IMG/VR virus record: IMGVR_UViG_3300044946_000177
Location: 2,301 to 66,300 of that record
From: a virus
Length of the DNA stretch: 64,000 nt
Reading direction: 5' to 3' (one strand)
The translations under genes were made by a program, and so were the position numbers. Positions 2,818-51,549 of the stretch are shown one piece after another (position 1 is the first letter of the stretch; the number at the start of each line of letters is the position of its first letter). Below the pieces are notes generated by a model, which was not told where the DNA came from, did not search any database, and was given only the letters and a program-made list of their open reading frames with translations.

Positions 2818-4749
2818 ATGGCAGGCTGGAGCGAAGCGAAAAGGGATCGCGTCGAGGCGGCGTTCTACGCTTTCCTCGCGAAATGTTTCATCAATTCAAA
2901 AGACAAGGGGCGCATTTGCCTAGGCGAGCATCTCTACGACGGGCAGATGCAGTTCATAACAGCCGTCTTTGACGCGCTGGAAGCGGACATCCATCACATT
3001 TATTGCCTCAAGAGCCGGCAGCTTGGCATTTCTACGATCGTTCGCGCCTTGATCGCGTTCTACGTCGGCATTCACGACGGTCTCAAAGGCGCTTTGATCT
3101 TCGACACAAGTCCCCACAAGGAGAGCGCGCGCAAGGAGCTCGTCACGCTCATAAAGAACTTGCCGCGCAGCCTGCGCTTTCCGGAAGTTCAGGGGACCGG
3201 GTCGGGCAATCGCGAGAGCCTGACCCTGATGAACGAGTCGGTGATTCTCTTCATGTCGGCCGGCGTCAAGGAGAGCAAGTCCAGCGGTACGCTGGGCCGC
3301 TCCGAGGGTTTGACCGTCGCGCATCTCAGCGAGCTTTGCTCGTACGAAAATCCTACTGGCATAAAAGCTCTGGAACAGTCGTTTTCTGACGAGCATCCAG
3401 ATCGGCTTTACATTTACGAGTCGACCGCCCGCGGTTACAATATGTGGAAAACGATGTGGGATAAAGCGAAGGCCGACCCCCATCATTGCAAGTGTCTATT
3501 TCTCGGTTGGTTTTCGAAGCCTAGCCAGAGCATCCCCAAAGAGCATGCCGATTTTCAATTGTATGGACTCGCCCCACCGACGACGGAAGAGGCGGTTCGG
3601 ATCAAGGCAGTGAGGGACCAGTACGGCCACGTCATAACGCCCGAGCAGCTGGCTTGGATTCGCAAGAAGGTGAATCCCGAGGTGAACGCTGAGAACGACT
3701 CGGCTGTTGAGGAAGACGACACGATCATGCTTGCCGAGCAGGCCTGGACGGAAGAGGAGGCTTGGCAGCAGACGGGATCGGTATTTTTTGCCGGCGCCGA
3801 CTTGACCGACATGACGAACAAGCATGTCAGTCGCAAGTTCAAGTCTTTTATGTTCCTGGCTGGCGAAGAGTTCGCCGACATGAAAATTTACCGGTCGGAG
3901 AATCCCCGGTCGACCGAGTTGAAGGTGTGGGAAGAACCAGCCCCGGAGGGCGTCTATGTCGCAGGAGTCGATCCCGCCTATGGAGAAAACGAGAACAACT
4001 GCAATTCTGCAATTCAAATCCTTCGATGCTATGCGGACGGGGTCGACCAAGTTGCTGAGTACGCTTGGCCTCTCCAAACAACACGTCATCTTGCATGGAC
4101 CTTGGCGGCTATCTTGGGATGGTACGGCGCTAGTCCTAGAGCCGTTATCCGATACATCCTCGAACTCAACGGTCCCGGCACCGCCGTCTACAACGAAATA
4201 AAGGCGTTGAAGTTCTACATCGAGAACGCGACTTATGTTCAGAAGCCGCTGGAAGAACGCGGGCTCATGAATCTATTTCAGAACGTTAAGACTTATATTT
4301 ACACCCGTCCGGATTCGATGGGGCCGGGGTATAATTATCACTGGCTTACGAATACCCGTTTGAAGATCACGATCATGGAGCAGCTGCGCGATATTGCGTC
4401 CAACGGCAAGTTGCGCATCCGGTCCATGGATCTGATCGAGGAGATGCGGTCGATCTCGCGGGAGGGCGATTCGATCGGGGCGCCGTCGTCGATGCGTGAT
4501 GACCGGGCGGTTGCAATGGCGCTCGCCAATTATTATTGGATGACCAAGATTCGCCAGGGGCTGATTGGCGAGCGGCGCACCCGCGCCGCGGAGGAATCCC
4601 GGCAGCGGCTGTCGATAGTTGACCAGGTGACGCTTTTCAACCAGAATAGCTTGGAGACGTTTTTTGCAGCCAAGCAGGCGGGGCGGCGCCGAGATGCAGT
4701 TGTCGCCACTCGCAATGCCTGGCGCTACGGCACAGGTCGGAGGTATTAA
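2818..4749 (+). CDS. terL: terminase large subunit
   Basis: LKSRQLGIST Walker A, HLSE Walker B variant, YESTARG motif III, VAGVDPA and DDRAVA RNase H-like motifs. Confidence 0.95.
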   Translation: MAGWSEAKRDRVEAAFYAFLAKCFINSKDKGRICLGEHLYDGQMQFITAVFDALEADIHHIYCLKSRQLGISTIVRALIAFYVGIHDGLKGALIFDTSPHKESARKELVTLIKNLPRSLRFPEVQGTGSGNRESLTLMNESVILFMSAGVKESKSSGTLGRSEGLTVAHLSELCSYENPTGIKALEQSFSDEHPDRLYIYESTARGYNMWKTMWDKAKADPHHCKCLFLGWFSKPSQSIPKEHADFQLYGLAPPTTEEAVRIKAVRDQYGHVITPEQLAWIRKKVNPEVNAENDSAVEEDDTIMLAEQAWTEEEAWQQTGSVFFAGADLTDMTNKHVSRKFKSFMFLAGEEFADMKIYRSENPRSTELKVWEEPAPEGVYVAGVDPAYGENENNCNSAIQILRCYADGVDQVAEYAWPLQTTRHLAWTLAAILGWYGASPRAVIRYILELNGPGTAVYNEIKALKFYIENATYVQKPLEERGLMNLFQNVKTYIYTRPDSMGPGYNYHWLTNTRLKITIMEQLRDIASNGKLRIRSMDLIEEMRSISREGDSIGAPSSMRDDRAVAMALANYYWMTKIRQGLIGERRTRAAEESRQRLSIVDQVTLFNQNSLETFFAAKQAGRRRDAVVATRNAWRYGTGRRY

Positions 4750-5892: not shown

Positions 5893-7634
5893 TAACGGTC
5901 CCCACCGACTACAACAAGCTTCTCCAATTCGCCCGCGACATGGTCGAGCAGTGCCGGGTGTCGTCGGCTTCACGGTCCGCTTATTACATGAGCCTCAATC
6001 AGATCGCCGAGACCGGCCGCTATGACGGCAACAAGGCGCTGATCAACAAGATCGACCCCCATCTTTCCCGGATCGCCGCTCACATTTTCTCCCCCGTCGA
6101 GTTGAAATTCACGATCGATTACGATCGCATGCATCCGAGGCAGGATTTGGATCGGGCGCGCGTGGCCGCGATGCAACTTACGCGCCAGTGGGATCGGACA
6201 TCGACCGATATTTTGTATGGACGGGGCGTATTCGAGAGTCTCAAGTACGGGTGGTGCGGCATCAAGCAGTGGCCGCAGTCCGAGGGGTCGGATGAAACTT
6301 ATCGGCAGTACGCGCGCCTCGTCATGCCTTGGAATTTCGGAGTTTACAATGAAGCCGAGACTGACATTTCGCGGCAGATTGCTACTTGCGAAACGGTTGC
6401 ATTGACGCTTCCAGAGGTGTGGCGGCGAATCTGGCACCTTCCGAAAGCTGAGAAGCTGTTCGAGCGTATTCGAGCGCACGCAGCGCCGGGGCAGAGTCAC
6501 GATGCCAACCAGTCGTTCTTCCATCAGGTGCTGTCGACCAACCAGATTCAGACGCAGAATCCCAACGGATTTTCCGGCACGTTGCCCGGCGGCATGGTGA
6601 ACGTATCGAGCGGTGGCAGCTTCCAGATCATGGGGCCGCAGGTCGCCGCTGAGACGTGCACGATGCACGAACTTTGGATTCAGGGGCATGATGACTATGT
6701 CACGCTGCAGCTGATCGAGCCCGATATTCTGGTTTCGCCGCCCGTGATGGATGGCAAGGTGCTGAAGCACTCTAATTTGCTCGGGCTTATCTCTCATCAG
6801 CAGCCGATTCGGTCAATCCAAGTCAACGAGACCAGCGGGTGGTTCTGGGGCAAGAGCGAGTTGGTCAATCTGGCCGAACCGCAGTCGTTTCTTGCTGGCC
6901 TTCTGGACGACATGCGGCGGCTGATCGGTCTGCAGGTCGACCGGATTCTGTTCTTCACCGGTGAGAACCGGATTACCGACGAGCTTTATGGGCAGATGCG
7001 GATGGCCGGTTTCGGCAGCAGCGACCCCAACATGAAGGTTGAGGATCTGACTCCACCGTTCTCGTCCGACCTGCTTCCCGTGATCAAGTTTGTAATCGAG
7101 CAGATGGATATCAACTCGGGTTTTCCGCCGATCATGCAGGGACAGGGTGAGCAGGGGGTCCGAGCGGGTTCGCATGCGGGCACGCTGATGAAGACGGCTT
7201 CGCCCACGTTGCGCGATCGCGCCCTGATCGCCGAGCGTAACTGTGCGGTTGCCGCCGATCTCACGATGGAGATCAAGGAGGCCAAGGACGATTCGACCTA
7301 TTGGACCAAGGCCGACACCATCCAGGATGTGCGGCAGACCGAGTTCAAGCTGACCGATTTGCCTGATGATTGGCGTGTCACCGTCGATTCACATTCGTCC
7401 AGCCCGATCTTCAGCGACGAGAATGCGCAGCTGATCTTGGCCGCCCATGCAAAAGGACTGGTGCAGACCGAATACGTGCTTAACAACATGCCGTTCCCTA
7501 ATCGGGAGGACGCCCTGGCTCAGAACCGCGAGGCGGATAAGAACAAGCAGGCGATGATTCGGCAGTTGATGCAGGAGAATCCGGAGGCGGCCGAGAAGGT
7601 GTTGGCTCGGACGCTCGGCGGTGGACGGCGATGA
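5889..7634 (+). CDS. portal protein
   Basis: 581 aa between terL and head genes; QGEQGVRAG segment; size and position. Confidence 0.85.
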   Translation: MITVPTDYNKLLQFARDMVEQCRVSSASRSAYYMSLNQIAETGRYDGNKALINKIDPHLSRIAAHIFSPVELKFTIDYDRMHPRQDLDRARVAAMQLTRQWDRTSTDILYGRGVFESLKYGWCGIKQWPQSEGSDETYRQYARLVMPWNFGVYNEAETDISRQIATCETVALTLPEVWRRIWHLPKAEKLFERIRAHAAPGQSHDANQSFFHQVLSTNQIQTQNPNGFSGTLPGGMVNVSSGGSFQIMGPQVAAETCTMHELWIQGHDDYVTLQLIEPDILVSPPVMDGKVLKHSNLLGLISHQQPIRSIQVNETSGWFWGKSELVNLAEPQSFLAGLLDDMRRLIGLQVDRILFFTGENRITDELYGQMRMAGFGSSDPNMKVEDLTPPFSSDLLPVIKFVIEQMDINSGFPPIMQGQGEQGVRAGSHAGTLMKTASPTLRDRALIAERNCAVAADLTMEIKEAKDDSTYWTKADTIQDVRQTEFKLTDLPDDWRVTVDSHSSSPIFSDENAQLILAAHAKGLVQTEYVLNNMPFPNREDALAQNREADKNKQAMIRQLMQENPEAAEKVLARTLGGGRR

Positions 7635-13752: not shown

Positions 13753-13776
13753 TGCGTGCCAGCAAGGAGGTGCGCC

Positions 13777-14544
13777 TTGCTGCAAACGTACCTGACTCGC
13801 ACACAGCAGCTCCTGCAGAACCCCGCGGCGCCGACCTCGCTTTATGCGACGGCCGATTTGACGTCCTACATCAACCAGGCGCGCGGGCAATTGGCCGGAG
13901 AAACCGAGTGCTGTCGTGCGCTTGGGACGCTTTCAACGGTCATCGGGACGCGCAACTATAACTTCTCATCGATCTCTCTGCCCGCGGGCACCAGTTTGGC
14001 CGGCGTCATCAACACGCGCGGGATGTTGTACGCGGTGGCGTCGGGCTATCAGTGGATTCGCCCGCGGCCGTGGGCGTGGTACTGGCTGTTCAAGCTCAAC
14101 AATCCGGTTCCGCAGGGCGGTGCACCGCAGGTCTTCAGCCAATTCTCGCAGGGCTCGTCGGGCCAGGGATCGATCACCGGCATCGGCGCCGGAACCATGT
14201 CGTCGGGCAGCTTTTATCTCGACCCGCCACCCGATCTCGTTTACTCGCTGCTGATCGACTGTTCGTGCTATCCGACCGCGCTGGTGGCGGACACGGACGC
14301 GGAGGCCATTCCGTACTTGTTCACGGACGCGGTTCCGTACTTTGCGGCCTATCTCGCGTTGTTGTCGTCGCAGACCTCGGCGCGGGTGGAAGACGCGCAG
14401 AAGATGTTCGACCTCTACAAGATGTTCGTGGATCGCGCCAACCAAGCTAGCGCGCCGAACGTAAATCGCTTCTTGTACGAGAGGCAGAGCGATCCGACGA
14501 TGATCAATAAGCTGGGTATTACCTCCAAGGCTGGAGGACAGTGA
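13777..14544 (+). CDS. head-tail adaptor-like protein, copy 1
   Basis: TTG after AAGGAGG; YINQAR...TDAVPYFAAY; paralogous to next gene. Confidence 0.65.
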   Translation: MLQTYLTRTQQLLQNPAAPTSLYATADLTSYINQARGQLAGETECCRALGTLSTVIGTRNYNFSSISLPAGTSLAGVINTRGMLYAVASGYQWIRPRPWAWYWLFKLNNPVPQGGAPQVFSQFSQGSSGQGSITGIGAGTMSSGSFYLDPPPDLVYSLLIDCSCYPTALVADTDAEAIPYLFTDAVPYFAAYLALLSSQTSARVEDAQKMFDLYKMFVDRANQASAPNVNRFLYERQSDPTMINKLGITSKAGGQ

Positions 14545-14545
14545 A

Positions 14546-15490
14546 ATGCCCATGACTCTCAACTCGTACATGCAGGACGTCCAGACTTTCCTGCGCGACG
14601 CCAAGCAGGATTTGATCGATCCTGAGGACATCATCAAGTACATCAACCGCGCCCGCCGGGAGATCGCGATCCGGACGCAGTGCGTGCGCGTTCTCACGCC
14701 GATCACGGGAGCGGTCATTGGAGCATCGGTTGTTTCCGGAGGTTCGGGGTATGGCAGCGGGACCACGACGATCACGCTTACGCCGCCTGATTTTCCTTCT
14801 GGCGCTGGACCTTTTCCGAACGGGAGTCAGGGCTCCGTTACGCCGATCGTCAGTGGCGGTTCGATCACGGGCGTAAACGTCGTTTATGGCGGTGCCGGCT
14901 ACTGGCAGCCATCGTTCTCGATCACTGGGGCGGGGAGCGGGGCGACGGTGACGCCGGTTTTGTCTACGATCAACCAACTCAGTCAGGGGTTGGAAGTTTA
15001 CAATTTCTCGCAGGCCGACCTTACACCGTTTCCTGGCGTCCAGTCGGTTTACGCCATTCAATCAGTAAGTTTGCTGTATAGCGGTTTTAGGTATAGTTTG
15101 CTGTGTTACGATTTCAGTACCTATCAGGCTCTCATAAGGATTTGGGCGCAGCAGTGGCAGTATGTGCCGGCTGTTTGTGCGCAGTATGGTCAGGGAACGA
15201 ATGGATCGTTTTATATGTACCCTATTCCCAGCCAAGCCTATCAAATGGAATGGGATTGTTTTTGCCTGCCGCAGGATTTGATTACTGATTTAAGTGTGGA
15301 GGTGATCCCAGACCCGTGGACTGATGCGGTCGCGTACTGGGCGGCTCACCTATGTTATCTCTCGATACAAAATTTCAATGCGGCAAAATTTTACGAGGAT
15401 ATGTTCAATAGGCGCTGTCTCGGTTATAGCAACGCTGCGCGCGTGAGCCGCAGGACGTCACCATATGGTAGGTACGCGGGAGGGGCTTAA
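14546..15490 (+). CDS. head-tail adaptor-like protein, copy 2, with GSGY insert
   Basis: YINRAR...TDAVAYWAAH. Confidence 0.65.
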   Translation: MPMTLNSYMQDVQTFLRDAKQDLIDPEDIIKYINRARREIAIRTQCVRVLTPITGAVIGASVVSGGSGYGSGTTTITLTPPDFPSGAGPFPNGSQGSVTPIVSGGSITGVNVVYGGAGYWQPSFSITGAGSGATVTPVLSTINQLSQGLEVYNFSQADLTPFPGVQSVYAIQSVSLLYSGFRYSLLCYDFSTYQALIRIWAQQWQYVPAVCAQYGQGTNGSFYMYPIPSQAYQMEWDCFCLPQDLITDLSVEVIPDPWTDAVAYWAAHLCYLSIQNFNAAKFYEDMFNRRCLGYSNAARVSRRTSPYGRYAGGA

Positions 15491-18308: not shown

Positions 18309-18354
18309 TTGTCGTGCTATCGTACAATGCACAACGATTTCGGAGGATAGCAGG

Positions 18355-18786
18355 ATGTCCATAGTTAATCGGGCTTTAATTGTTGAGCGCGACTGCGCAG
18401 TCGCGGCCGACTTAACAAGCAAGGAGCCTTTTCTAAATCGAGAGCAGGCTGCAGCAGCGCTAACGAAGCACGGGTACAAAATTGCACGTGCTACGCTTGC
18501 AACCATGGCGAGCCGGGGGCAAGGTCCTGTTTACAAGAAGTGGGGGGCACAAACGCTCTATCGCTTGAGTGATCTTTTAGCGTGGGCCAAGTCTAAAACG
18601 GCTGATGCGGGAGGATTTGATGCGGTTCCAGAATTGGACGAGTGGCACGAATGGGGCGGGATACGGTATCGAGTTTCTTATGATTCTGCCAAGGTTTTTA
18701 TTGTTCCCGATGAATTCAGGATAAAGGAGTTCACAGCGATGCCGGACGGCACTATTCACGTAGTCTTGGAAAAACGGACGGGGTAG
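18355..18786 (+). CDS. AlpA/excisionase-like HTH protein with portal-like N-terminal peptide
   Basis: GGAGG RBS; FLNREQAAAAL...TLATMASRGQGP.Y.K.G...LY...DL.AW. Confidence 0.75.
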   Translation: MSIVNRALIVERDCAVAADLTSKEPFLNREQAAAALTKHGYKIARATLATMASRGQGPVYKKWGAQTLYRLSDLLAWAKSKTADAGGFDAVPELDEWHEWGGIRYRVSYDSAKVFIVPDEFRIKEFTAMPDGTIHVVLEKRTG

Positions 18787-18787
18787 G

Positions 18788-19153
18788 ATGGGGCTAGCAA
18801 CTCTAACTTTCGTCCCCGACACGCCCGCCGACTTCCAGCGGTGGAGCTTCTCGAACCAGGCGTCGCATCGCGACATCATCCGCGTGATCGAGCAAAATCA
18901 AGTCGCGATGACGCCGGGGTTCACGCTGATGCCGGTAGACGAATACCTGATCGACCCCTTCGACCCCGAGAACCTGGGCAACTGGCCGTACTTGCATCAG
19001 GTCATGCACAACCAAATGTTTCAAGCCGCCGGTCTGCCCGCCAGCTACGACCTGACCGGGATCGATTGGCAAGACCCCCAGGTTGTGCAAAACTGGATCT
19101 CGGCTCACGCCGACGATCATAACCGAATCTCAGCCTTTTTAGGATTGTCCTGA
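18788..19153 (+). CDS. hypothetical virion-region protein
   Basis: Tightly packed ORF. Confidence 0.7.
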   Translation: MGLATLTFVPDTPADFQRWSFSNQASHRDIIRVIEQNQVAMTPGFTLMPVDEYLIDPFDPENLGNWPYLHQVMHNQMFQAAGLPASYDLTGIDWQDPQVVQNWISAHADDHNRISAFLGLS

Positions 19154-20879: not shown

Positions 20880-22498
20880 TGACTTTTATCGACCCGATGC
20901 ACGACAATTTGACCGGAGATCCCACTCCGGTCGGCGGCACCCGATTGCCGCAAGCCGCCCCTCCGTCCGGTCCCGCCCTTCCCGATTACGCGCCCTACGG
21001 CGGCGCCAACATGACCGGTCTGGCGCCGGGTTCCTCCGACTACGTGTCGAGCCGCCTTGCCGGCGAGGCTGCGGCAAAGGGCGAGGCGCAGACTTACGTC
21101 GATCGGCGGGCGGAAGACCAGATGGTGCAGGATCGCCAGAAGATGGCGCAATCCTATGCCCTGGAGTCGGCCGATGCGCGCGATCCTGCCCTCCGGCCGT
21201 GGAACGCCGAGCAGGAGAAAGCCAAATACATTCGCGGCCCCATGGAGAACTTCGGCTCGGTCGGCATGATCTTCGCCATGGCTGCCTCCGCGTTCACCCG
21301 CACGCCCATGATCAGCGCCTTGAATGCGGGTGCCGCCGCCATGCAGGCGACTCAACAGTCCGACGAGAAGGCGTACAAGCAGGCTTTCGACGCTTGGAAA
21401 AGCAACTCCGACCTGGCGCTCAAGCGCTTCGACATGGAGCGCAACCTCTATGAGGACGCCAACAAGCTGCTGACGACCGACATGGGTCTCTGGAAGCAGA
21501 AAAGCTTGATGCTCGCGGCGCAGTTCGACAACCAGAAAATGCGAATCATGCTGGAAAACGGCATGGACAAGGAGGTGCTGGACGCGCAGGCCGCGCAGTT
21601 CAAGGCCGCGGAGGAGATGCGCAAGTCGAAGTTCGAGTTCGATAAGCAGGATTTCTTCCGGCAGCAGTACGCGGATTCGGTCAAACAGTATCAGGACGCC
21701 CATCCGGGGGTGAATGACAAGAACAAGACGCCGGAATACGTGGCGTTTAAGTCCAAAGCGTGGAGTGACGCCCTACGCGCTTCGCAAGGCGAGATGACCC
21801 CGGAGCAGCTCGCGCAGCTTCGCGCGACGAGCGCGGGGGGTAACACCAATTTGACCGCTGATCGCCAGCGCGCGGCCGATGTCGACAAGATTATGAAAGA
21901 AAAAGAAGCTGCGGGAGAATTAAAGGGGAAGTCGGCAGAGCAAATAGCCGATATACGCGCTAAGGAAGAAGCGCGCTTAAAGTCCCTTGGTACTCCCATC
22001 ACATCCAGTCGCAAAGATGACCTTGCCAGCGCAATCACTCGCGCGCAATTGTCCTCCGATACGATTAACAACATAGAATCGCTCTTAAAGAAGCATATCG
22101 CCTTGACTGGTCTTGGCGGCAAAATTACTCGCCCAGCGGAAGCGATCGGCAACGTGTTTGGGAGCAACGCAACTGACCGTGCGCAGTTTTTGTCTCTCAT
22201 TTCCGAGTTAAAAGAGTGGGCGCCGCGCTTGCTCAACGAATCCAAGGCGCGACCGTTGGCATCGGAAGAAAAAGAAATCGCAAATATCGTTCCCGGCTTG
22301 AATATTGGCGATACGACTAAAAATACGGCGGATCGGCTTTTAAAGTTGCAAAAACTGTTTCGCCAGCTGCAGGAAAACATGACCAAGCGCTATGAGGGAA
22401 CGTGGCAGCCTCCGGCAGTCGGTTCTACATCGCCTTCTCCCGCAACTACTTCGCCCGGCAGGAAACCTTCATACCTTGATGCTCCGGTTACGCCATGA
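20879..22498 (+). CDS. internal virion/ejection protein
   Basis: Helical, second of three increasing-size genes. Confidence 0.65.
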   Translation: MTFIDPMHDNLTGDPTPVGGTRLPQAAPPSGPALPDYAPYGGANMTGLAPGSSDYVSSRLAGEAAAKGEAQTYVDRRAEDQMVQDRQKMAQSYALESADARDPALRPWNAEQEKAKYIRGPMENFGSVGMIFAMAASAFTRTPMISALNAGAAAMQATQQSDEKAYKQAFDAWKSNSDLALKRFDMERNLYEDANKLLTTDMGLWKQKSLMLAAQFDNQKMRIMLENGMDKEVLDAQAAQFKAAEEMRKSKFEFDKQDFFRQQYADSVKQYQDAHPGVNDKNKTPEYVAFKSKAWSDALRASQGEMTPEQLAQLRATSAGGNTNLTADRQRAADVDKIMKEKEAAGELKGKSAEQIADIRAKEEARLKSLGTPITSSRKDDLASAITRAQLSSDTINNIESLLKKHIALTGLGGKITRPAEAIGNVFGSNATDRAQFLSLISELKEWAPRLLNESKARPLASEEKEIANIVPGLNIGDTTKNTADRLLKLQKLFRQLQENMTKRYEGTWQPPAVGSTSPSPATTSPGRKPSYLDAPVTP

Positions 22499-25400
22499 TC
22501 GATCAGCCTCCGGAACAGACGCCTGAGCAGCAAGCCGACGCCATGGCTGGCAGCGGCTTGCGCACCATCATGCGCCGCGCATTGCCTGCTAGCGCGAAGC
22601 CGCAACTCGAAGAAAAAACAGCGGCACCGTTTCAATTGTCCAGCGAAACGCCGGACGAAGATTATGCCGCGTTGAATCCCGGCATGCGTTTTGTCGGGCC
22701 TGATGGGCAGACACGCACAAAACCGTGGGAAGTCAGGGAAGGAACCGAGGAAGAAGACTACGATCTTGTTCCAGAAGGTAAGGTTTTTGTCGATCCTGCC
22801 GGACAAACTCGCACCAAGCCCGCTTATCAGGACGTCGACCTGACTGCCTCTACCCTTTATCACATGGCGGTCAACGACACCGAGCGGCGCAAGGCGCTCG
22901 ATCGGTCCTACCCCGGCAAGGTGCAGCAGGACACACAGGGGCGGTTCTATGTCGACGATGACGGCGTGCGCCGCCGCCCCAAAAACATGCTGGAAAGCCC
23001 GACGGGTATTATCTCTACTGTTGGCGGGGCAGGTGGTCCAATGGCGGGCAGCGCCCTGGGGGAAGTCGGTGGAGCTGTTGTTGGCGGACCTGTTGGAGCG
23101 GTAGCTGGCGCTGGTCTGGGCGGCGCGCTCGGGCAGGGCTTGAATGATCTGATTTTGAAATACGCAGGCGTCTATGACCGCTCGGCGGGAGAAGAGGCGA
23201 TCAATCTCAGCGAAGCCGGTGCGTTCGGCGCGGCAGGTTCGGCTGTGGGCCGAGTGGCTGGTGCAACTCTGGCCGGGGCCGGTGGAGCCAAGGCCGTTGC
23301 TAAAGGCAGCGCGCCTGGTGTCGCTGCGCATTTCCTCGGCGCAGATAAGGAATCGCTTCAGACTTCGTTGCGGATCGCGGCGGAAGGCGAGCACGAGTCT
23401 TCAAGCAAGATATTGCGAGCCTTCGGGATGACCGACCCCGGCACGCCGGTCCCGATCTCGGCCTGGGCGCACCACGCTCCGATGCTCCAAATTGAGCACG
23501 AAGTTCTGCATCCTCGCTTCCATATGGAAGAGCCTTTGAAACAGGGCCGAACTGCTTTCATGGAAAAGCAAGGAACATCCTTGCTTGGCGATCTCGGGGC
23601 TAAAGTCGAAGGAAGCCTGACAGAGCCTCTCGCGGCAGTATCGGGTCGCGAAGCCGGTCAGATGGCGATTGATCGAGCGTTGCAGGAGTCGTCTGCTCGT
23701 GAGACGGCCCTTCGTATGCGAATTGGTGAACAAAAAGCGGCTGCCGGCATGCAGGCACAGGCGGCTTTGCCCGAATACGAAGCACGTTTGGCTGCATTGC
23801 GCGATGCAGGCCAGCAGGCAGATGCCGCCGCAACCAAAGTGGTCGATGCAGGCTACAAGGCAATCGAGAAGGACGCCGAGAATGCCATGCGCGCGGCTAA
23901 AGCCGGGCATAACAGCGGCGATTTCTGGCAGTCAGTCGCCGAGAAGTTCAAAGATATTCGGGGAATGATCGGTGTACGTGCATCTGGCCGCTATGCTGGT
24001 TGGCGCGAATCTTTTGGCGAGATCGTTCCCGAACAAGGCGGGCTGGCAGAAGACGCACAGGCGTTTCTCGATGAGTTGCCTAAACCGTTTCAGGAAAACC
24101 ATCCTTCGTTGATCAAGCGCGTCGCGCAGTTGGCTGGCGAACAGGGCCACGATGGCGAATGGGTGCGTGAACCGGTTACGCTCGATCTCGCGTCCGCACA
24201 TGAGCTGCGTTCATTGTTCCGGCACAATATCGACTGGAGCGACTTGCCATCGGATGCTCGCAACGGCGCGTTGAAACTGTTTCAGGGCAAGCTCGATTCC
24301 GTCATTCATGGTGCTGATGTCCCGCTCGCCGCGCGCAAGGGGCTGGATGATATCGACAAGTGGTACGGCAAGGTCATGCCGATCTGGAACGACAAGCGTA
24401 TCCAGGCGGTCGTCGACGGCATACGGAACGGCCAGCCGGCCGACCCCAAAGAACTCGTAGAGATGATGATCAAGGAGGGCAATACCGATTTCAACAACAA
24501 GCTTCGCCGCATGCTAGGCCCTAATTTATGGTCCGGAATCAAGGGCGCATATTCCGAGAATCTAATTCGCAAGAATCGCGACCTGTGGGGCAATGTAAAT
24601 GGTACGTCGTTCGCGCGTGACGTTCTGGAGGATTATAATTCCGGGCTTCTCAAATCGATTCACGGCGAAGAAGGCGCTGAAAAGTTGCGCCGTCAAGCCC
24701 AATATGCATCTCTGCTCGACGGCAAGATGCCAATTCCCACTCGCACAGGCGACACGACGCTTGATGTCATCGAACGCGCCCGGCAGACCCAGATAGCAAT
24801 CGAGAAGGAAGCCGAGAAAAACCCGATCGGCTTGCTCAAGGATGAACTCAAACGGCTTTCTCAGCAAGAGCGGCAACTGGAAGGCGCAGAGCGACGCGCG
24901 ACCCAGCGCGATCCGTTCAAATTCCTGATTGACAAGTCTGTAGGTGCTTCTAAAGCGGCCGACAAGATCGCATCAAGCGAAGACCTGATCATCGCATATG
25001 CAGCCCGAGTTGGAGAAAACTCCCCTGAGTGGGAAGCGATGAAGCAATTCATTGCCAAGCGTATTTTTACCGACACAGTTGAACCGAAGGATCGACTCAA
25101 AAAGATTTCTCCCGAAGTCAGCGAACTGGTGTTGCGAACGAAGTTGGCTGATGCGCAGCGCTTGGCCAAAGACATGGAATTCCTGAAGCCTCGCACCGAT
25201 GCGGGCTCCGGTACATCCATTCTGGCTACATCAAAAGTTACACATCCTTTTGGAAGTGGAGTTATCGGAAAGACTTCTCAAGCCGCATTAAAGCCGATCG
25301 GTGGCGGCCCCGTAGCTCGCGGTTTCTTGGATAGTTACTATGACCTCCTGGCTAAGCTGATGGAATCGCCGTCGACCATGCGATGGGTCATGAAAGGGTT

Positions 25401-27072
25401 GGAAGGCAACCCGCAATCCCGCGAAATCGTCAAAGCGCAGATTCAGCGCTGGATGCAAAAGGCTGGCCCCCTTGGGGCGGCGGTCGGCGAAAGCCAGTAT
25501 CAGGCTGGCTCGGAAGGGCTCCCGCCGTCCCAGGAAAATTCGGAAGGTGGTAACCAGATACCTCAAGGCGGCCCAGCACCGCACGCCCAGTTGCAGGGGC
25601 CGCCCGGCGCGGTGCTGTCGGATGAGAGTCCTGATCCCGTTCGTCCCGGCGCGCAGTACGCCTCAAATGAACCGGCGAAACCCGAGAGCGCTCTGCCGCA
25701 AGAACCGTCCAATTTCCTAGCTGACGCCGATCCGGCTCAGCAGGCGCAGCAAGCCCGCGAGGTCGCGGCACAGCGGCAGCGCCAGGCTGTCCAGCCCGCC
25801 GAGGGACGCCAGGAAGGCGCGTTCACCGACGCGCTGTTCGACGCGCTCATTCCTGGCCGTGCCGCTGTCCGGTCGCTGACGCAGGGCGAGTATGGAAAGG
25901 CTGCCGTAGAGGCCGGCGCGTCCGCGATGCCTTACGCAGGAAAAGCGCTTGGCGCCGCGGTTCAAGCTGCTCCGATGCTGACCAAGGCCGTTGCCGCTTC
26001 CACCGCCGCCTTGACATCGTTGTTCATGGATACGTCGGAAGGCGCTTCCAAGCTCTCGCCCGAAGACCAGTCACGCATCCGGATGATGCAAGAAAAGTCC
26101 AAGCAGGAACAGCAGAACCGGGCCAAGGATGCTGAGCTGCGGAAGAAGGAAGCCGACGAAAAGGCGGATCGCGACGCCAAAGCCGCTCAAGCCGCGGCGC
26201 AGACTCAGGCCGATTTGCAGGCAAAACTTGCCCAGATCGAGGCAGACAAGCAGCGCGAACAAGCGCGGATCGAGGAGGAGCACAAGGCAGCCGAGCAGCG
26301 CGCAGCGGAAGAGACAATCAAAGCGAATGCGGCCGAGAACAAGCGTATGGCCGAGCGGCCTTTCCGGGAGAAACATCCGGACGCGGATTTGGGCATGTTC
26401 ATGGGCGGCATTGCCGCTGCTGCGATCCTTCCTGGCGCCACCCAGGCTTACAGGCAGTGGGCGTTTAACACCTACTTGAAGGATTGGGAAAAATTGGATG
26501 CGGTTGCGACGCAAGCACTAAAAACCGGTACGCGCGAAGAGCAGCGATTGGCTATCAATCGACTGACGGCCGCAGCCGGCGAGTTGGCGAAGCGCGAAGG
26601 AAAACTGGAAAAGTACCCGTGGCTTACGCAATTGGCAGCGCCTACCATCGCGGCGGAAATGAGCATGTTGCCGGCCGAGATTGATATAAGGCAGCCTTAC
26701 GGAACCAAGGCTCACGAATCCGCGGTCGATTATTACACTGATCCTGCGACCTATGCCGGATTGGGACTTGTCGCCGGAGGCGGTTTCGGACTCGGTCATT
26801 ATTCGCGCGAAGCAGCTGAGGGGCTTCTTCCAAAAAGCAAAATACCGACCGGTACGGCCGGCACAGTCAAGACGTTCGAGGAGCGTAACACGGCTGAAGC
26901 AATCGCAGCAGAAGCTGCGGCCAAGAAGAAGGCTGAATCTGTCGCGAAGCGCAAAGCAACGCTTGAAGCGAAAAAGAAGGCCGAAGCCAAAGCGGAAAAG
27001 AAGGAAGAGGAGCCGCGCAAGGCCAAGGTACCGCGCGGCGGCTCTAAGATTTACGGACTGAGGGACGAATGA
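22495..27072 (+). CDS. large internal virion/ejection protein
   Basis: 1525 aa, glycine-zipper segment, duplicated EDY...FV.P.GQTRTKP motif. Confidence 0.7.
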   Translation: MIDQPPEQTPEQQADAMAGSGLRTIMRRALPASAKPQLEEKTAAPFQLSSETPDEDYAALNPGMRFVGPDGQTRTKPWEVREGTEEEDYDLVPEGKVFVDPAGQTRTKPAYQDVDLTASTLYHMAVNDTERRKALDRSYPGKVQQDTQGRFYVDDDGVRRRPKNMLESPTGIISTVGGAGGPMAGSALGEVGGAVVGGPVGAVAGAGLGGALGQGLNDLILKYAGVYDRSAGEEAINLSEAGAFGAAGSAVGRVAGATLAGAGGAKAVAKGSAPGVAAHFLGADKESLQTSLRIAAEGEHESSSKILRAFGMTDPGTPVPISAWAHHAPMLQIEHEVLHPRFHMEEPLKQGRTAFMEKQGTSLLGDLGAKVEGSLTEPLAAVSGREAGQMAIDRALQESSARETALRMRIGEQKAAAGMQAQAALPEYEARLAALRDAGQQADAAATKVVDAGYKAIEKDAENAMRAAKAGHNSGDFWQSVAEKFKDIRGMIGVRASGRYAGWRESFGEIVPEQGGLAEDAQAFLDELPKPFQENHPSLIKRVAQLAGEQGHDGEWVREPVTLDLASAHELRSLFRHNIDWSDLPSDARNGALKLFQGKLDSVIHGADVPLAARKGLDDIDKWYGKVMPIWNDKRIQAVVDGIRNGQPADPKELVEMMIKEGNTDFNNKLRRMLGPNLWSGIKGAYSENLIRKNRDLWGNVNGTSFARDVLEDYNSGLLKSIHGEEGAEKLRRQAQYASLLDGKMPIPTRTGDTTLDVIERARQTQIAIEKEAEKNPIGLLKDELKRLSQQERQLEGAERRATQRDPFKFLIDKSVGASKAADKIASSEDLIIAYAARVGENSPEWEAMKQFIAKRIFTDTVEPKDRLKKISPEVSELVLRTKLADAQRLAKDMEFLKPRTDAGSGTSILATSKVTHPFGSGVIGKTSQAALKPIGGGPVARGFLDSYYDLLAKLMESPSTMRWVMKGLEGNPQSREIVKAQIQRWMQKAGPLGAAVGESQYQAGSEGLPPSQENSEGGNQIPQGGPAPHAQLQGPPGAVLSDESPDPVRPGAQYASNEPAKPESALPQEPSNFLADADPAQQAQQAREVAAQRQRQAVQPAEGRQEGAFTDALFDALIPGRAAVRSLTQGEYGKAAVEAGASAMPYAGKALGAAVQAAPMLTKAVAASTAALTSLFMDTSEGASKLSPEDQSRIRMMQEKSKQEQQNRAKDAELRKKEADEKADRDAKAAQAAAQTQADLQAKLAQIEADKQREQARIEEEHKAAEQRAAEETIKANAAENKRMAERPFREKHPDADLGMFMGGIAAAAILPGATQAYRQWAFNTYLKDWEKLDAVATQALKTGTREEQRLAINRLTAAAGELAKREGKLEKYPWLTQLAAPTIAAEMSMLPAEIDIRQPYGTKAHESAVDYYTDPATYAGLGLVAGGGFGLGHYSREAAEGLLPKSKIPTGTAGTVKTFEERNTAEAIAAEAAAKKKAESVAKRKATLEAKKKAEAKAEKKEEEPRKAKVPRGGSKIYGLRDE

Positions 27073-35095: not shown

Positions 35096-36369
35096 ACCTC
35101 GATCCCACGCAAATCATGCTTCTCGCCCTTCTCGTGAGCATGGGCGCGGACAAGCTGTTCGTGGGATATCTGATCAGCCTGTTGGCGAGGAGCAGCCGTG
35201 CGCAACCCGTCAGCCCTCCTGTTGCTATCCCTCCCGCTGGGCCTGTTCCAGTCTCTCCTGGTCCTGTCGCTGTTCAACCGCCCGTCGGTCCCGCTCCCGC
35301 GGCCCCACCCGCCGTCATACCTCCAGTCGTTGTTCTCCCCGCCCCACCACTCCCGCCCCCCGTGGTTGTCCCGCCAGCACCCATCCCATCCCCCGCTGCC
35401 GGCCTTCCTCGATTTACCAACATCACCACATCCAGCTTCGCAGGGGTCGGAGACAGCGAAGTCTCAAAAGAGTCCGCCTACTATCCAGAGCACTACCCCA
35501 ACAAGTACATCGAAAGCGACAACCCCGGCGCAGCCCTCCCCTACCACTTCCCCGGAACTCCCCCGGTCATCCGCGTCTTCTTCCGCGGCAAGACCGTCGA
35601 CTGTCCCATCGTCGATGTCGGGCCGTGGAATACCCACGACCCCTATTGGGATCACGGTGCCCGTCCCCAGGCCGAGAGCGGAACCGACACGACTGGCAGG
35701 AGAACCAACCATGCCGGACTCGATCTCACACCAGGGGCATGGAGCGCGCTCGGCAAGACCGGCAACCTCGACGACATCACGGACGTCACGTCATGGGACT
35801 TCGTGTCTGTGCTCGACAAAGGCAATCCGCCATCACCAGCTACAGCGCAGCCATCGGCGCCGTTAAGCGGCGGGACCATCCTCCAGAAGAACGTGTGGCC
35901 GTCTCAATCGCAGGCCACGTCCTTCTTCGGCAATCCAGCTTCGGCGGGATGGGAGACGGCGAATCTCGTCGAGGTGACCTGCCCGTGGGAATTGACCGTC
36001 GAGGGAACCAAGACCGATCGGATCAAGATTCACCGAAAGTGCGCACTGAGTCTCGGGCGCGTGCTTGACTACATCTGGGAGCAATGCGGAAAGTCGCAGG
36101 CACTGATCAATGCGTTCGGGTACAACGTCTTCGACGGCTCCTACAACTATCGCCCAATCGCCAACACATCGATATTGAGCGAGCACGCCTACGGCGGCGC
36201 GCTCGACTTCAACGCGGCGGCAAATCCGCAGCACGCGACAGCGTCACAAACCAAGTTCAAGGAAGACAGCCTGATTGTCCAAGCGTTCAAGGGCGAAAGC
36301 TGGACGTGGGGCGGCGACTGGTCGCCGGCCTACAGAGACGCGATGCACTTTCAAGCCCTCAAAGCGTAG
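35092..36369 (+). CDS. modular endolysin (TM, Pro linker, RlpA/DPBB-like domain, M15 peptidase)
   Basis: IVDVGPW...LDLTP; YR...SEHAYGGALD...WGGDW...DAMHFQ. Confidence 0.85.
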   Translation: MNLDPTQIMLLALLVSMGADKLFVGYLISLLARSSRAQPVSPPVAIPPAGPVPVSPGPVAVQPPVGPAPAAPPAVIPPVVVLPAPPLPPPVVVPPAPIPSPAAGLPRFTNITTSSFAGVGDSEVSKESAYYPEHYPNKYIESDNPGAALPYHFPGTPPVIRVFFRGKTVDCPIVDVGPWNTHDPYWDHGARPQAESGTDTTGRRTNHAGLDLTPGAWSALGKTGNLDDITDVTSWDFVSVLDKGNPPSPATAQPSAPLSGGTILQKNVWPSQSQATSFFGNPASAGWETANLVEVTCPWELTVEGTKTDRIKIHRKCALSLGRVLDYIWEQCGKSQALINAFGYNVFDGSYNYRPIANTSILSEHAYGGALDFNAAANPQHATASQTKFKEDSLIVQAFKGESWTWGGDWSPAYRDAMHFQALKA

Positions 36370-36380
36370 GAGAAATACAC

Positions 36381-37517
36381 ATGACTGTAAAAACCATCAC
36401 CCGCCCAGACGGGCGCACCGCGCGCTTCGGCCGCAGGAAGCCAGCAGCCCTACGAGAGATCGCCAAGCTCTCGTCCTTCGCCGCGACGCTTCCGACGCCA
36501 CCGCCGTCTACCAATTATGCGGCGAAGGCAGCGTCCGTGCTCTCGCAGATGTACGAGAATGATCAGCTGGGCGACTGCGTGCCTGCCGGGCTCGCCCACG
36601 TCGACGGAGTGCTTATTTCGAACCAGCCGGCCACGGCTCCAATCCTGACCAACGCGCAGATCAACACGATCTACGAGTCCTGCGGCTACGTTCCCGGCAA
36701 CCCGAACACCGACAATGGCTGCGAGGTGCTGCAGACGATCGACTGGTGGATGGAAAACCCATTACCGGGCGGCACTAAGCCGGTCGGAGTCCTGTCCGTC
36801 GACCCGACGAATCAGAACGAGGTCATGCTGGCGATCTGGCTGTTCGGCAACCTGATCATCGGCATCGACCTCCCTGACGCCTGGATCACGCCATTCCCGT
36901 CGGCAAACGGGTTTACCTGGGACGTGGCGGGCGCGCCAGACCCGAACAACGGCCACTGCCCGCCCGGCATCGACTACACCGCCGAGGGCATGGTCATCTC
37001 GACCTGGGGCATGACCGGAACCATGACGTGGGCCGCGGTCGCCTACTATCTTGCGGCAGCGCAGGGTGGCGAGGCATACGTCGTCATCAGCCAGGACAGC
37101 CTAAATGCTGCCACCGGCCTCGCGCCGGATGGATTCAATTGGTCGCAAATGGTTGCCTACTTTGACAGCATGGGCGGCAATGTGACGCCACCGGTCACCC
37201 CGCCGGTCACCCCGCCGGTCACCCCGCCGGTCACCCCGCCCGTAACGCCTCCTGTCACTCCCCCAGGATCAGCGCCGAGCCACGCCGCGCTCGATCAGGC
37301 ATTGACGGCCCTTGGCCGCGTCATCAACGAAATCCAGAACCCCAACGTGCGCAGCGACGTGCAGAGGGAGTTCCGGGTAGTCAGCAGTCAGGCGGCAGCC
37401 TACGAGACTGCGGTTGCGGCTGGCTGGGGAACGACGCCTTCGCCAGCTCCATCCCGGCCACCCCAGCAGGACAATCCGCAGCCGCCTCGACGCCCCGGCG
37501 GGGGTGGGCGACGTTAA
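36381..37517 (+). CDS. papain-like cysteine peptidase with VTPP linker
   Basis: NDQLGDCV, GHC, ISTWG motifs; AGGAG RBS. Confidence 0.7.
   Translation: MTVKTITRPDGRTARFGRRKPAALREIAKLSSFAATLPTPPPSTNYAAKAASVLSQMYENDQLGDCVPAGLAHVDGVLISNQPATAPILTNAQINTIYESCGYVPGNPNTDNGCEVLQTIDWWMENPLPGGTKPVGVLSVDPTNQNEVMLAIWLFGNLIIGIDLPDAWITPFPSANGFTWDVAGAPDPNNGHCPPGIDYTAEGMVISTWGMTGTMTWAAVAYYLAAAQGGEAYVVISQDSLNAATGLAPDGFNWSQMVAYFDSMGGNVTPPVTPPVTPPVTPPVTPPVTPPVTPPGSAPSHAALDQALTALGRVINEIQNPNVRSDVQREFRVVSSQAAAYETAVAAGWGTTPSPAPSRPPQQDNPQPPRRPGGGGRR
37182..37265 (+). repeat. 7 x 12-bp coding repeat (VTPP)
   Basis: gtcaccccgccg units. Confidence 0.95.
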
Positions 37518-47336: not shown

Positions 47337-47560
47337 GCTGATTCCTTACTGTCCGCCAACCATTGATGCTCACCTTTTATCGCGACACATTCAGGCGCGT
47401 GCTTGACGCTATGTTTGTATGGGATTCCGTAACGAGTTTCTTTTATCGTCGGGTAAACCCATCTATAAATGCCGCACACGCGACAACGATAAATAAAAGG
47501 GCGTTTGTCGAGCACCGATTGTCGCAAATCCTCTTCCACCGAAAACCAACGATGCCTCAT
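47333..47560 (-). CDS. hypothetical protein
   Basis: ATGA coupling; CRVC. Confidence 0.55.
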   Translation of the reverse strand: MRHRWFSVEEDLRQSVLDKRPFIYRCRVCGIYRWVYPTIKETRYGIPYKHSVKHAPECVAIKGEHQWLADSKESA

Positions 47561-49875
47561 TTCGAATACCTCACTCCCAGTGATGCTTCGGCGTCAAGAG
47601 GAATGTTAGGGAGCCATACCGGTGCCCGGCACATTTCCAACCGACACAGCTCCAATGTCTCTTCCGCCTTCGAGTTGTCAGGAATCAACAGCAGGAGTTC
47701 GTCGTAGGGCCAATTCAAGCTCCTGATCCCGTACTGGCGCTTGATCCGGATCATGGCCTGGCTGACGTGCACGCGCGACACGAATTCCATTATGTTCTGG
47801 CACAACTTGGAAGGCCACATCTTTTTCCAGCCGCGCTTGACTTTCATCCGCCAGTAGCCGTTGCGCTCGAAGTCGCGGCAGTCCTCGTCGGGACCGGGCC
47901 GATGGAATTCGAGGGTATCGTACAGCATGGCTTGGCCCGACGGAAGAATTAACTTGTGGTCCTTCACCAAGAACGGCCCCCATTCCATCGGCGGGCCGCC
48001 TGCGAGGCGCGAAATGATCCTTCCGCACTGCGCCCAGTACCCCGTGTTAGGAGCGCAAACAGCCGGATGACTGTCACGGAAAATTGTCACGAAGCGGTCG
48101 GCTTCTTCCAGGCTCATGTCGACCGGAGGACCATAAAGTCCCGCTTTCGCAGTTTTCTGAAATTGCTTGGCGGCTGCACCATAGATACAATTATGTACAA
48201 TAAAAAAACCGGCAGCAGTCACAACGGTGAATCTGTTCCTCGGCCCGCTGCAAACGAGATCGTAAGTCGGCAAGCTCCTTCTCCAGATCGCGAAGTCGTC
48301 TCCGGTTAGCTGTCTGAGATTCATAGCCTGTGACGGTAAGTTCGCCGAACCGGTTTCCAACGCTAGGGACAGGATGCTTCCTCTTACTCGTGAAGCGGGT
48401 TGCCACGTACTCCCGCACAATACAAGGTGGTCCGGAGTCATGAAAACGCCCTTTCGCTTCACGACGCGCTTTACGCCCTGCGAGATCAAACCCAAGTGCT
48501 CGACCCACTCGCAACCGTCCCATAACAGATCATCAGTAGATACTTCAGTTATGGGTTTTATCCCGTTGTTTGTCAACACTAAAGTATTCGGGCCAAGACA
48601 CATTAAATTCGCTTGTTTCGAGCATCCTCTTTTTTGCTCCATTTCCAGTTTGCGAGGGTCGTCCTTGCCGGGTTTGTAAATTTCTTCGCCGTAAAACTCG
48701 CAGGCCAAGGGTATATAGGGATCCTCGCCGCGACGAAGCCGCTCTACCACGTCGTCTTGCCCCGCCAGCTTCATCGCGAACCTGAATTCAACCTGCGAAG
48801 CATCGACCGGCCCTAGCAGGTATCCTTCCGGCGCCAAAATCGAACGTCGGATAGCGGAACCACGCTTGAAGTTGAGCCAGTTCGCGCCATCGCCTCCCGT
48901 AGGCCGGAGGGTAGCAGCGCCACAGTAGCGCAGATAAACGCACAGAGATCCTCGTTGCGCCATTGTACCCAATGTTTCTGCGCGCGTCTGGAGAAGCGTC
49001 GACTTGGCGCCGATGCGGGCTTCGGCAAGCGTCCGGATGCGATCGTCGTCATGTTCGAGCAGCTCCTGCATGAAATCGTCGTTTTTGGCAAACTGCGGAA
49101 TGTCGCCGTTCTTACCCTGCTTGTATTCGATCTCGACGCCCTCAGCTTCGAGTAGCGCTTGGAATTTAGCGGCAGATTGGACGTCGGCCTCGGTGATTCC
49201 GAGAGCCTTCATGCGCTCCTGTTTGGCGAGAGCTTCGGACTCCCAGAGATCCGCAAGCATTTCGGTATCCGCACGCAGGACTGGATCAACGAACATTCGG
49301 ATTAGAGAGTCAATAACTTCCATCTCCTCCAACGGTATTTTCTTGATCAAACGCGAAAATATCTGCCAGATACTCTCACATTCATCGGCCGCGCCTTCAC
49401 CAATTTGCTGCTGCACGGCGGCCGACAGCTCAAACCAGTGCTTTCCCTTGAACAAATGGTAGGGCGTGGTCTTCGCGCCAATCCCGTTCAACTTGCGTAC
49501 GTTGTCGAGGGAAACGGATTCATGAATAGGATAAAGCAGCCGCGCCATCGACATGGTGCAGGCGTACATCTTTGGGCGTACGCCATAATGATGCGCCAAA
49601 ATCAAACCGTCAAAATTCATATGGTGGCAAATCAGACAAACATCCGACCAATCCTCTTGCGCAAGCACGTGCCGCAGTTGTCGCTCATCGTACCATTTGG
49701 CAAGCGTATCAGGCGCCCACTTGATGCCGGCACAGTGAACCTTGAACCAAGGATGGCGTACATACTCCTCGGTCGTGCAAGCGTTTTCGTTATTACGTTT
49801 AAGTCTATACTCAACGCCGCGAGAATCCTTCTCGCTGGTGAAAAACGTCTCGGCGTCGAATACTACGAACCTCAC
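47557..49875 (-). CDS. family A DNA polymerase with 3'-5' exonuclease and intein
   Basis: FDAET exo I, HHMNFD exo II, DASQVEFR motif A, K..N..(intein)CIYG motif B, YDEL motif C; GTG start overlapping upstream TGA. Confidence 0.92.
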   Translation of the reverse strand: MRFVVFDAETFFTSEKDSRGVEYRLKRNNENACTTEEYVRHPWFKVHCAGIKWAPDTLAKWYDERQLRHVLAQEDWSDVCLICHHMNFDGLILAHHYGVRPKMYACTMSMARLLYPIHESVSLDNVRKLNGIGAKTTPYHLFKGKHWFELSAAVQQQIGEGAADECESIWQIFSRLIKKIPLEEMEVIDSLIRMFVDPVLRADTEMLADLWESEALAKQERMKALGITEADVQSAAKFQALLEAEGVEIEYKQGKNGDIPQFAKNDDFMQELLEHDDDRIRTLAEARIGAKSTLLQTRAETLGTMAQRGSLCVYLRYCGAATLRPTGGDGANWLNFKRGSAIRRSILAPEGYLLGPVDASQVEFRFAMKLAGQDDVVERLRRGEDPYIPLACEFYGEEIYKPGKDDPRKLEMEQKRGCSKQANLMCLGPNTLVLTNNGIKPITEVSTDDLLWDGCEWVEHLGLISQGVKRVVKRKGVFMTPDHLVLCGSTWQPASRVRGSILSLALETGSANLPSQAMNLRQLTGDDFAIWRRSLPTYDLVCSGPRNRFTVVTAAGFFIVHNCIYGAAAKQFQKTAKAGLYGPPVDMSLEEADRFVTIFRDSHPAVCAPNTGYWAQCGRIISRLAGGPPMEWGPFLVKDHKLILPSGQAMLYDTLEFHRPGPDEDCRDFERNGYWRMKVKRGWKKMWPSKLCQNIMEFVSRVHVSQAMIRIKRQYGIRSLNWPYDELLLLIPDNSKAEETLELCRLEMCRAPVWLPNIPLDAEASLGVRYSK
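48190..48600 (-). other. 137-aa mini-intein in polymerase motif B
   Basis: Begins CLGPNTLVLT, TPDH block B, ends VHN followed by Cys. Confidence 0.92.
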
Positions 49876-50162
49876 AACGGCACCACTTTGTAATTGCTCC
49901 ACCGGCCCTGCCCGCTCCAAATCTTGATCCCCTGAGCACCCAGGACCTTGTTCATCTGATGGACGTGCACGTTGATGATCGAGACCGACTCGGCGCCGCC
50001 GTCCGGGTCGTCCGCATAAACGTGTTCCCTGATCTGATCGCCCGTCACGCCCTCGGGATGCTTGCAGACATAGGCGTAGATGCGGCTCTTTACCGACCGC
50101 GCCGAGAACGGATTGTCGGGCGGGATCAGCTGGTGGCAAGTGGGGCAGCAGAACGGTTTCAT
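49872..50162 (-). CDS. OmpR-like winged-helix protein
   Basis: VY.DDPDGG...INVHVHQMNK.L; N-terminal CPTC. Confidence 0.7.
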   Translation of the reverse strand: MKPFCCPTCHQLIPPDNPFSARSVKSRIYAYVCKHPEGVTGDQIREHVYADDPDGGAESVSIINVHVHQMNKVLGAQGIKIWSGQGRWSNYKVVPL

Positions 50163-50410
50163 TTGAACACCTGCGCTTCAAGCTTATCAATTTGCTTCTT
50201 AAGCGAGGCGATCTTTTTGACTCGCATCACGTTTGCGCGCTTGACCGCGGCTTCACGAGTACGATGCCAATCCCGCCCTTCGCCGTGATAGCTGCACGCA
50301 TGCCGATGGCCGGATTTTTTGGTTACCATCGACGGAGCGTTTTCGCTGCAATCGGCTTCGAATTCCTCAATGCCGATCGATAGCGCATATTTGGTTGCGA
50401 AGACTTTCAT
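50159..50410 (-). CDS. hypothetical phage protein
   Basis: TKYAL..GI...WH.T.E.A...KIASLKKQI. Confidence 0.75.
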   Translation of the reverse strand: MKVFATKYALSIGIEEFEADCSENAPSMVTKKSGHRHACSYHGEGRDWHRTREAAVKRANVMRVKKIASLKKQIDKLEAQVFK

Positions 50411-51548: not shown

Positions 51549-51549
51549 G

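Follow-up and report, generated by a model that had tools for sequence, protein, structure and literature searches.

A portal-like leader peptide on a putative DNA-binding accessory protein of a soil phage

Extra genes in accessory hotspots of phage genomes are known as morons. At a smaller scale, illegitimate recombination in phage genomes can give rise to chimeric ORFs, a process referred to as sub-genic mosaicism. AlpA-type regulators are found in a different mobile setting: in integrative islands and satellites, they show an integrase-HTH-primase arrangement. Short N-terminal sequences can also act in the virion, as in the internal proteins of T4, which have N-terminal capsid-targeting sequences that are not copies of a portal sequence. 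Furthermore, modular shuffling in the genomes of T4-type phages has been ascribed to mobile regulatory cassettes (PMC2839356). In the literature on portal sensing and mimicry, on AlpA and satellites, and on chimeric genes, covered mostly at the level of abstracts, no portal-derived peptide on an accessory gene was encountered.

The locus described here belongs to a soil phage. The window, that is, the whole stretch of DNA analyzed (64,000 nt), corresponds to bases 2301-66300 of a 66.3-kb IMG/VR record rated complete by CheckV. According to an initial annotation of this DNA, an inserted HTH gene starts with a recoded 16-aa copy of the phage's own portal peptide, and several accessory ORFs carry fragments of core proteins. 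These were proposed to be a set of self-mimic peptides or, alternatively, core-gene fragments captured from related phages. The features involved are listed in Table 1.

Table 1. Positions in the window of the accessory gene, its parts and surroundings, and the resident portal gene.
Feature	Position	Strand	Remarks
P0001 accessory gene	18355..18786	+	143 aa; portal-like leader, HTH_17-like winged-helix core, small C-terminal domain
Shine-Dalgarno-like GGAGGA	18342..18347	+	read off the sequence; 7 nt 5' of the ATG at 18355
Portal-like peptide RALIVERDCAVAADLT	18370..18417	+	16 codons, P0001 residues 6-21
Winged-helix HTH core, ~residues 25-83	18427..18603	+	region aligned in at least 1000 family matches
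C-terminal domain, ~residues 90-143	18622..18783	+	common only to P0003, P0009 and the stand-alone 64-aa P0044
Inserted cassette	18309..18786	+	46-nt leader + ORF, hypervariable slot
Portal gene P0002, 581 aa	5889..7634	+	model on 120 homologues, Foldseek
Portal residues 444-459 RALIAERNCAVAADLT	7218..7265	+	within predicted helix 439-466
Virion or tail-fibre-like gene, 749 aa	16059..18308	+	upstream slot border; PHROG structural-protein matches; conserved
Conserved gene, 121 aa	18788..19153	+	downstream slot border; no Pfam or PHROG match

Elsewhere in the window, the DNA polymerase gene (47557-50190, minus strand; phrog_17, E 2e-32) encodes at residues 550-617 a match to the "endonuclease" phrog_93 (E 4e-7), a part that may represent an insertion of the homing-endonuclease or intein-like type. 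Perfect or near-perfect (VTPP)n peptide repeats are present at 36084-37517 (plus strand), and perfect or near-perfect repeat units of the SAAWSAARSAES type at 50799-51665 (minus strand), in a frame that may be spurious. Many large late proteins, including one of 1525 aa (22495-27072), gave no PHROG match.

An accessory cassette in a hypervariable slot

The P0001 gene is a cassette located in a slot whose content is hypervariable. The portal led to five related records (99, 99, 97, 84 and 53% portal identity), of which three are at least 99% complete. P0001 is missing from all five, and the only matches to it in these records are their own portals, which bears out its initial description as an inserted gene. 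In the two closest of them, G001 and G004, the DNA similarity to the window ends at 18307 (end of the 749-aa gene) and restarts at 18764 (G001) or 18787 (G004). Both borders are conserved: identity to G001 and G004 at the nucleotide level is 92-96% for the 749-aa gene, up to its stop codon, and 96-97% for the 121-aa gene.

Other cargo occupies the slot in three complete relatives, two of them with 99%-identical portals; the gene is thus present in one genome and missing at the same site in close relatives, as for an accessory cassette. In G001, the slot holds a 292-aa FkbM-type methyltransferase (L018:2514-3392; PF05050, E 4.5e-14), in G003 a 197-aa Methyltransf_24 protein on the minus strand (L023:2312-2905; E 1.6e-12), and in G004 a 56-aa ORF without a family, on the minus strand as well (L017:2513-2683). 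No promoter or terminator of the cassette stood out: one weak promoter-like and one terminator-like site lie inside the ORF, neither above shuffle expectation. Contigs from X2 and X3, soil-metagenome runs of other studies, are identical to the window over 18585-18917 and 18416-18660. One of these contigs bridges the 3' junction of the gene, and none covers 18355-18415.

The last 23 nt of the cassette (18764-18786) already align with G001 (L018, ~3359-3390). With an earlier GTG taken as its start, the downstream ORF of G001 would begin MGLLEKRRSQM..., which resembles the ...VLEKRTG end of P0001. This stretch may be a common junction for cassette exchange.

Past the ATG at 18355, no ATG, GTG or TTG occurs ahead of codon 51; production of the HTH protein hence entails translation of the peptide. 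A start downstream of the peptide, raised in the initial annotation as an objection, is first available at that codon, already inside the HTH. The peptide is indeed N-terminal to an HTH, although this is an HTH_17-like core that stays below the Pfam cut-off: the match to HTH_17 (PF12728) has an E value of 0.002 and 18.8 bits, with a gathering cut-off of 27. For the C-terminal domain, all structural look-alikes in the Atlas were below threshold, and no family could be named. Judged from its sequence, P0001 would be a DNA-binding winged-helix protein resembling AlpA/Xis and extended by a C-terminal domain, most likely acting as a small DNA-binding regulator.

The family of P0001 is large. A HMMER search of 1.84 billion representatives gave at least 1000 matches at E<=0.001, almost all to residues ~21-85, and at a threshold of E<=0.01, HTH_17 is recovered in 18 of 63 family members, with 6.3e-6 as the lowest value. 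The 15 relatives of the core in GTDB genomes (L045-L059) come almost exclusively from Alphaproteobacteria. Among the ORFs tested around them, a tyrosine integrase was found upstream in 4/6 and a VapE-like, Toprim or Prim-Pol protein downstream in 3/3; this int - HTH - primase/VapE order resembles a putative integrative island or satellite. The neighbors of P0001, on the other hand, are structural genes, and a tyrosine integrase (PF00589) is absent from the whole 66.3-kb record. The two-domain architecture of P0001 is shared by P0003 (87% identity) and P0009 (52%) only, P0044 being the C-terminal domain of the P0001 type alone. Two IMG/VR scans for further two-domain homologues yielded one distant HTH locus (L003) in the first and none in the second. 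No longer, fused form of P0001 was present among 1545 candidates, which is weak evidence, and no portal gene of the resident family was located within ~4 kb of the HTH relatives at 16 loci.

The resident portal and the peptide match

The 581-aa ORF had been annotated as the portal, and its fold agrees with this. An earlier model built from 7 sequences was unusable (pLDDT 33), whereas AlphaFold with 120 homologues gave a pLDDT of 77.3 and a pTM of 0.74. Among the PDB matches listed for this model by Foldseek, ranks 1-50 all belong to portals (TM scores, normalized to the query, of 0.38-0.56; E values from 1e-16 to 5.5e-10). The fold is nearest to podophage portals, namely those of Pan3, SU10, N4 and T7. 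Furthermore, two distant records annotated as portal protein match P0002 in tblastn, and the gene lies downstream of TerL (2818-4749; phrog_2, E 3e-15). P0002 has no Pfam, PHROG or NCBIfam match and does not fall in the curated family SPP1_portal (PF05133), on which its homologue P0230 reaches 25.0 bits with a cut-off of 25.5; nor does its profile (120 homologues) match any of the PDB sequences.

The elements of the P0002 model follow each other as a long helix, a small beta/alpha unit, a helix, a loop, a long helix and C-terminal helices. The long helix 439-466 comes directly after a Gly-rich, low-confidence loop (~410-434) and is itself confidently modelled, with block pLDDT values of 86 and 94 over 441-460. 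We take the loop to be the tunnel loop and the helix the canonical post-tunnel-loop helix, an assignment that leans on the order of these elements in the known portal topology, rather than on a superposition. In the set of 120 portal homologues (53-100% identity), the 444-459 window has a mean column conservation of 0.81, ranking 108 among 566 16-aa windows: it is well conserved, though not the most conserved.

Residues 6-21 of P0001 share 14/16 amino acids and 31/48 nucleotides with these portal residues, and the codons differ at 12 of the 14 shared residues; the initially given counts were reproduced from the sequence. In BLASTP, the pair scores 33.1 bits (E 2e-6). Across 89 ORFs of at least 40 aa, picked greedily by length (20,588 aa in total), this match is the sole inter-protein 16-aa window with more than 10 identities. 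The runner-up, at 10/16, involves the genes at 13756-14544 and 14546-15490. These two are adjacent paralogous genes of the structural module (30.5% over 167 aa, E 9e-14). When the residues of the whole proteome were shuffled 50 times, the maximum was 9 in 29 shuffles, 10 in 20 and 11 in a single one. The comparison with shuffled controls, as proposed initially, hence places the P0001-portal match above the shuffle maximum of 11/16. The same picture emerged when all 1413 six-frame open segments (minimum length, 25 aa) were compared with the 23 proteins that have 300 aa or more: only this match exceeds 10/16, and four others at 10/16 are at shuffle level. The match is real and beyond chance. The several accessory ORFs said to carry portal, capsid and terminase fragments, on the contrary, were not recovered, as nothing else rises above 10/16 in the proteome or the six-frame comparison.

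The peptide agrees with the profile of the portal family no less than with the resident portal. At portal position 448, P0001 has V, like 86 of the 120 homologues, and it is the resident portal that differs; at position 451, P0001 has D, as do a few portals. Variants of several other portal clades also reach 14/16 with the P0001 peptide, and none reaches 15; the resident portal, named in the initial annotation as the template, is therefore tied with other clades. The similarity ends abruptly: R442 is conserved in 119/120 portals and D443 in 111/120, where P0001 has V and N.

At the DNA level, the peptide segment matches 13 IMG/VR portals, in register, at 28-33/48 nt and at 3-6 of the 16 third positions, and on either side the identity drops at once to random level. 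Against the resident portal, three third positions match, and the flanks are at random identity (18/60, 4/15 and 10/45). Together with the 31/48 nucleotides, this indicates that the peptide DNA does not come from the resident portal, which the sequences appear to rule out as the source. Among themselves, portal clades diverge to a comparable extent, with 27-46/48 nt in common over the same segment. The same codon is used at 2 of the 14 shared residues, for which 4.7 would be expected with the codon usage of the phage (P(<=2) 0.09) and 4.0 with uniform usage (P(<=2) 0.18). Active recoding was considered and rejected: two of 14 is what saturated synonymous sites give, and the word "recoded" in the first description does not hold. 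Leu is encoded by TTA at both of its positions in the peptide; across the phage, TTA has a 4% share among Leu codons. The GC3 is 0.52-0.56 in the peptide, 0.51 in the rest of the cassette and 0.75 in the portal, a contrast that for the 16 codons of the peptide is, alone, below significance; the value for the cassette deviates from the mean of the phage (0.62) by no more than ~1 SD.

Degenerate-pattern scans of IMG/VR were carried out for donors and other carriers. In the first, 16 loci were found, of which three were spurious frames; the other 13, and all 20 loci of the second scan, were portals that had the peptide where expected. There was no second non-portal carrier among these 16 + 20 matches. 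No donor was found either, since none of the 29 distinct portal loci exceeded 33/48 nt or 14/16 aa. In a scan of JGI metagenomes, the HTH-type variant RALIVER[DN]CAVAADLT had no match, and the looser RAL[ILFM]VERDCA had four, all in spurious non-portal frames.

Origin and possible roles of the leader

The leaders of the HTH family vary greatly in length and sequence. From 156 family proteins, 88 leaders of at least 8 aa were scored against portal residues 431-470, and that of P0001 was the only outlier (Smith-Waterman score 69, null maximum 40). The peptide is missing from 154 of the 155 HTH homologues and degraded in the remaining one, P0003, with an ungapped identity of at most 6/16 across the 155. 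In the first 23 columns of their alignment, P0001 and P0003 have 9 identities and 6 gap columns, compared to 108/120 identities past the leader (Fisher p 1.5e-5). The P0003 leader is homologous to that of P0001 (score 33, null maxima 29-31) and has no significant score with the portal segment (22). P0009 has just four residues ahead of the aligned region and lacks the peptide. A leader motif intrinsic to the family was rejected as a candidate: P0018 and P0040 score 22-23 with the P0003 leader, for a null 99th percentile of 24. The leader thus appears to be lineage-specific and decaying in its nearest homologue, the decay argument being that of one homologue known solely as a protein from a 2.2-kb contig. 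The P0001 peptide has itself not changed from the portal consensus since the split from P0003, except for the shared D.

The best explanation, to which we assign a probability of roughly 0.55, is that a mobile AlpA-like gene acquired its N-terminal leader from a short stretch of the portal gene of a related phage. That a related phage's core gene supplied the fragment was the alternative put forward initially, and it best fits the lineage-specific occurrence, the family-wide fit and the lack of DNA similarity to the resident portal. The first ~20 residues of P0001 would be the relic of a ~50-60 nt piece of a portal gene, the donor being another member of the family of the resident portal. The transfer would have gone from portal gene to HTH gene: illegitimate recombination would have joined the fragment to the 5' end of the latter in the common ancestor of P0001 and P0003, and the fragment would serve today as the leader of P0001. 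The whole gene would be a horizontally mobile cassette, dropped into the hypervariable slot of the late operon. High amino acid identity with scrambled codons would be expected because the helix is under purifying selection in portal genes, and since portal clades are synonymous-saturated with respect to one another, codons could be scrambled without any recoding. The leader probably has no portal-specific job, and ordinary phage mosaicism at the sub-gene scale is the most likely cause. Of the two signs of neutral capture named in the initial annotation, the absence from HTH homologues was found and a near-identical donor DNA was not. The original observation is consequently confirmed in part: the match and the insertion stand, unlike the set of peptides, the recoding and the origin from the phage's own portal.

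Other explanations differ in how much they ask of the leader. Chance or convergence, with two Ala-rich amphipathic helices of no common origin, would ask nothing, and could be argued from a nucleotide signal no greater than the amino acids impose, from the many windows covered by the scan and from a BLAST score of only 33 bits, equivalent to an E value of ~0.02 by rough arithmetic for a window-wide all-against-all; it is nevertheless very improbable, as none of the 50 shuffles exceeded 11/16, the next real inter-protein match is that between paralogues, both mismatch positions hold residues used by other portal-family members, and the Smith-Waterman score of the leader with the portal segment lies far outside its null. 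It is less improbable, though still unlikely, that the segment was captured and then exapted, as an amphipathic N-terminal helix that aids dimerization, stability or translation initiation of P0001 and is unrelated to portal biology. The origin in a portal gene would be the same as for simple capture; the variable leaders of the family imply that N-terminal extensions are tolerated and can be recruited, and the segment is intact in P0001. The indels inside the segment in P0003 speak against such a use, as does the Atlas model of P0001, with a pLDDT of 0.62 and a pTM of 0.39.

A functional mimic is a quite improbable and unsupported explanation, ranking between these two. The leader would copy the initial turns of the long helix that, in the portal, comes after the Gly-rich loop, and this selected copy of the post-tunnel-loop helix would let an AlpA-like, satellite-type regulator dock where the helix packs. 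The HTH protein could thereby be targeted to the portal vertex or the procapsid, or be packaged and delivered; it could also interfere with the assembly of portals, in its own or a rival phage, or sequester a host factor or a sensor recognizing the helix. Fourteen of 16 residues kept without a nucleotide trace (third positions at 3-6/16, random flanks) are what long-term selection at the protein level gives. Furthermore, the helix is confidently modelled (pLDDT 86-94 in the blocks over 441-460) and conserved in the family, the Cys is kept in the P0001 peptide, and the gene lies within the operon of late structural genes, reads in the same direction and has an RBS of its own. On the contrary, P0003 lost 6 residues and altered others, P0009 is without the leader, the occurrence is single, all true matches in the two IMG/VR scans being portals, and the gene is missing from the closest relatives, whose portals are 99% identical. 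Moreover, binding to clip, stem and wing surfaces is described for the known portal sensors (PMC12847820). A decoy conserved among homologues and recurrent in related phages was not found: an immune-decoy role for the leader seems unlikely because the peptide is neither conserved nor recurrent. The set of self-mimic peptides first suggested, as decoys or for assembly interference, is thus reduced to a single, non-recurrent peptide, degraded in P0003 and missing in P0009.

The sharp boundaries, with R442 and D443 replaced, imply either that the captured patch was very short or that the peptide was kept while its flanks were lost, and the latter would hint at selection. With the missing donor and the intact segment in P0001, these boundaries leave room for a selected role. 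A functional leader would provide a new way for an accessory protein to reach the portal vertex or a portal-reading defence; if it is a true mimic, an accessory gene would carry a single-helix "self-mimic" of one of the essential virion proteins. If, as preferred here, it is a relic of capture, the locus is a clean and datable case of sub-genic mosaicism, in which a mobile regulator owes its translated leader to ~50 nt from within an essential structural gene, and it shows phage accessory genes gaining new N-termini. It is also a warning: capture from a synonymous-saturated relative can, by itself, yield an apparent "recoded self-copy".

Comparison with known systems

Portals, the protein class from which the peptide comes, are sensed by defences like Avs4 and SpbK (PMC12847820). 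The P0001 peptide differs from what these systems read, since it maps in the model to the helix after the Gly-rich loop, the putative tunnel loop. With the capsid targeting of T4, the locus would share the principle that a short N-terminal peptide could steer a non-structural protein into the prohead.

The resemblance to AlpA/Xis proteins (HTH_17) lies in the weak match of the core and in the int - HTH - primase/VapE order around the relatives. P0001 deviates from them by an extra 55-aa C-terminal domain, a 20-aa leader and a score below gathering, and also by its position in the structural module of a phage without a tyrosine integrase.

Like morons, the P0001 gene is a single extra gene between two conserved late genes, missing from near-identical relatives that have alternative cargo at the slot. 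Unlike morons, the cassette has no promoter or terminator of its own above shuffle expectation, and it carries a core-gene-like fragment at its 5' end. Sub-genic mosaicism would account for this kind of fragment: an unrelated gene receives a short piece of another, the boundaries being sharp and the flanks free of homology. The P0001 piece is particular in that it measures ~16-20 codons, corresponds to the interior of an essential structural gene and is a translated leader in a genome that also holds the homologous portal.
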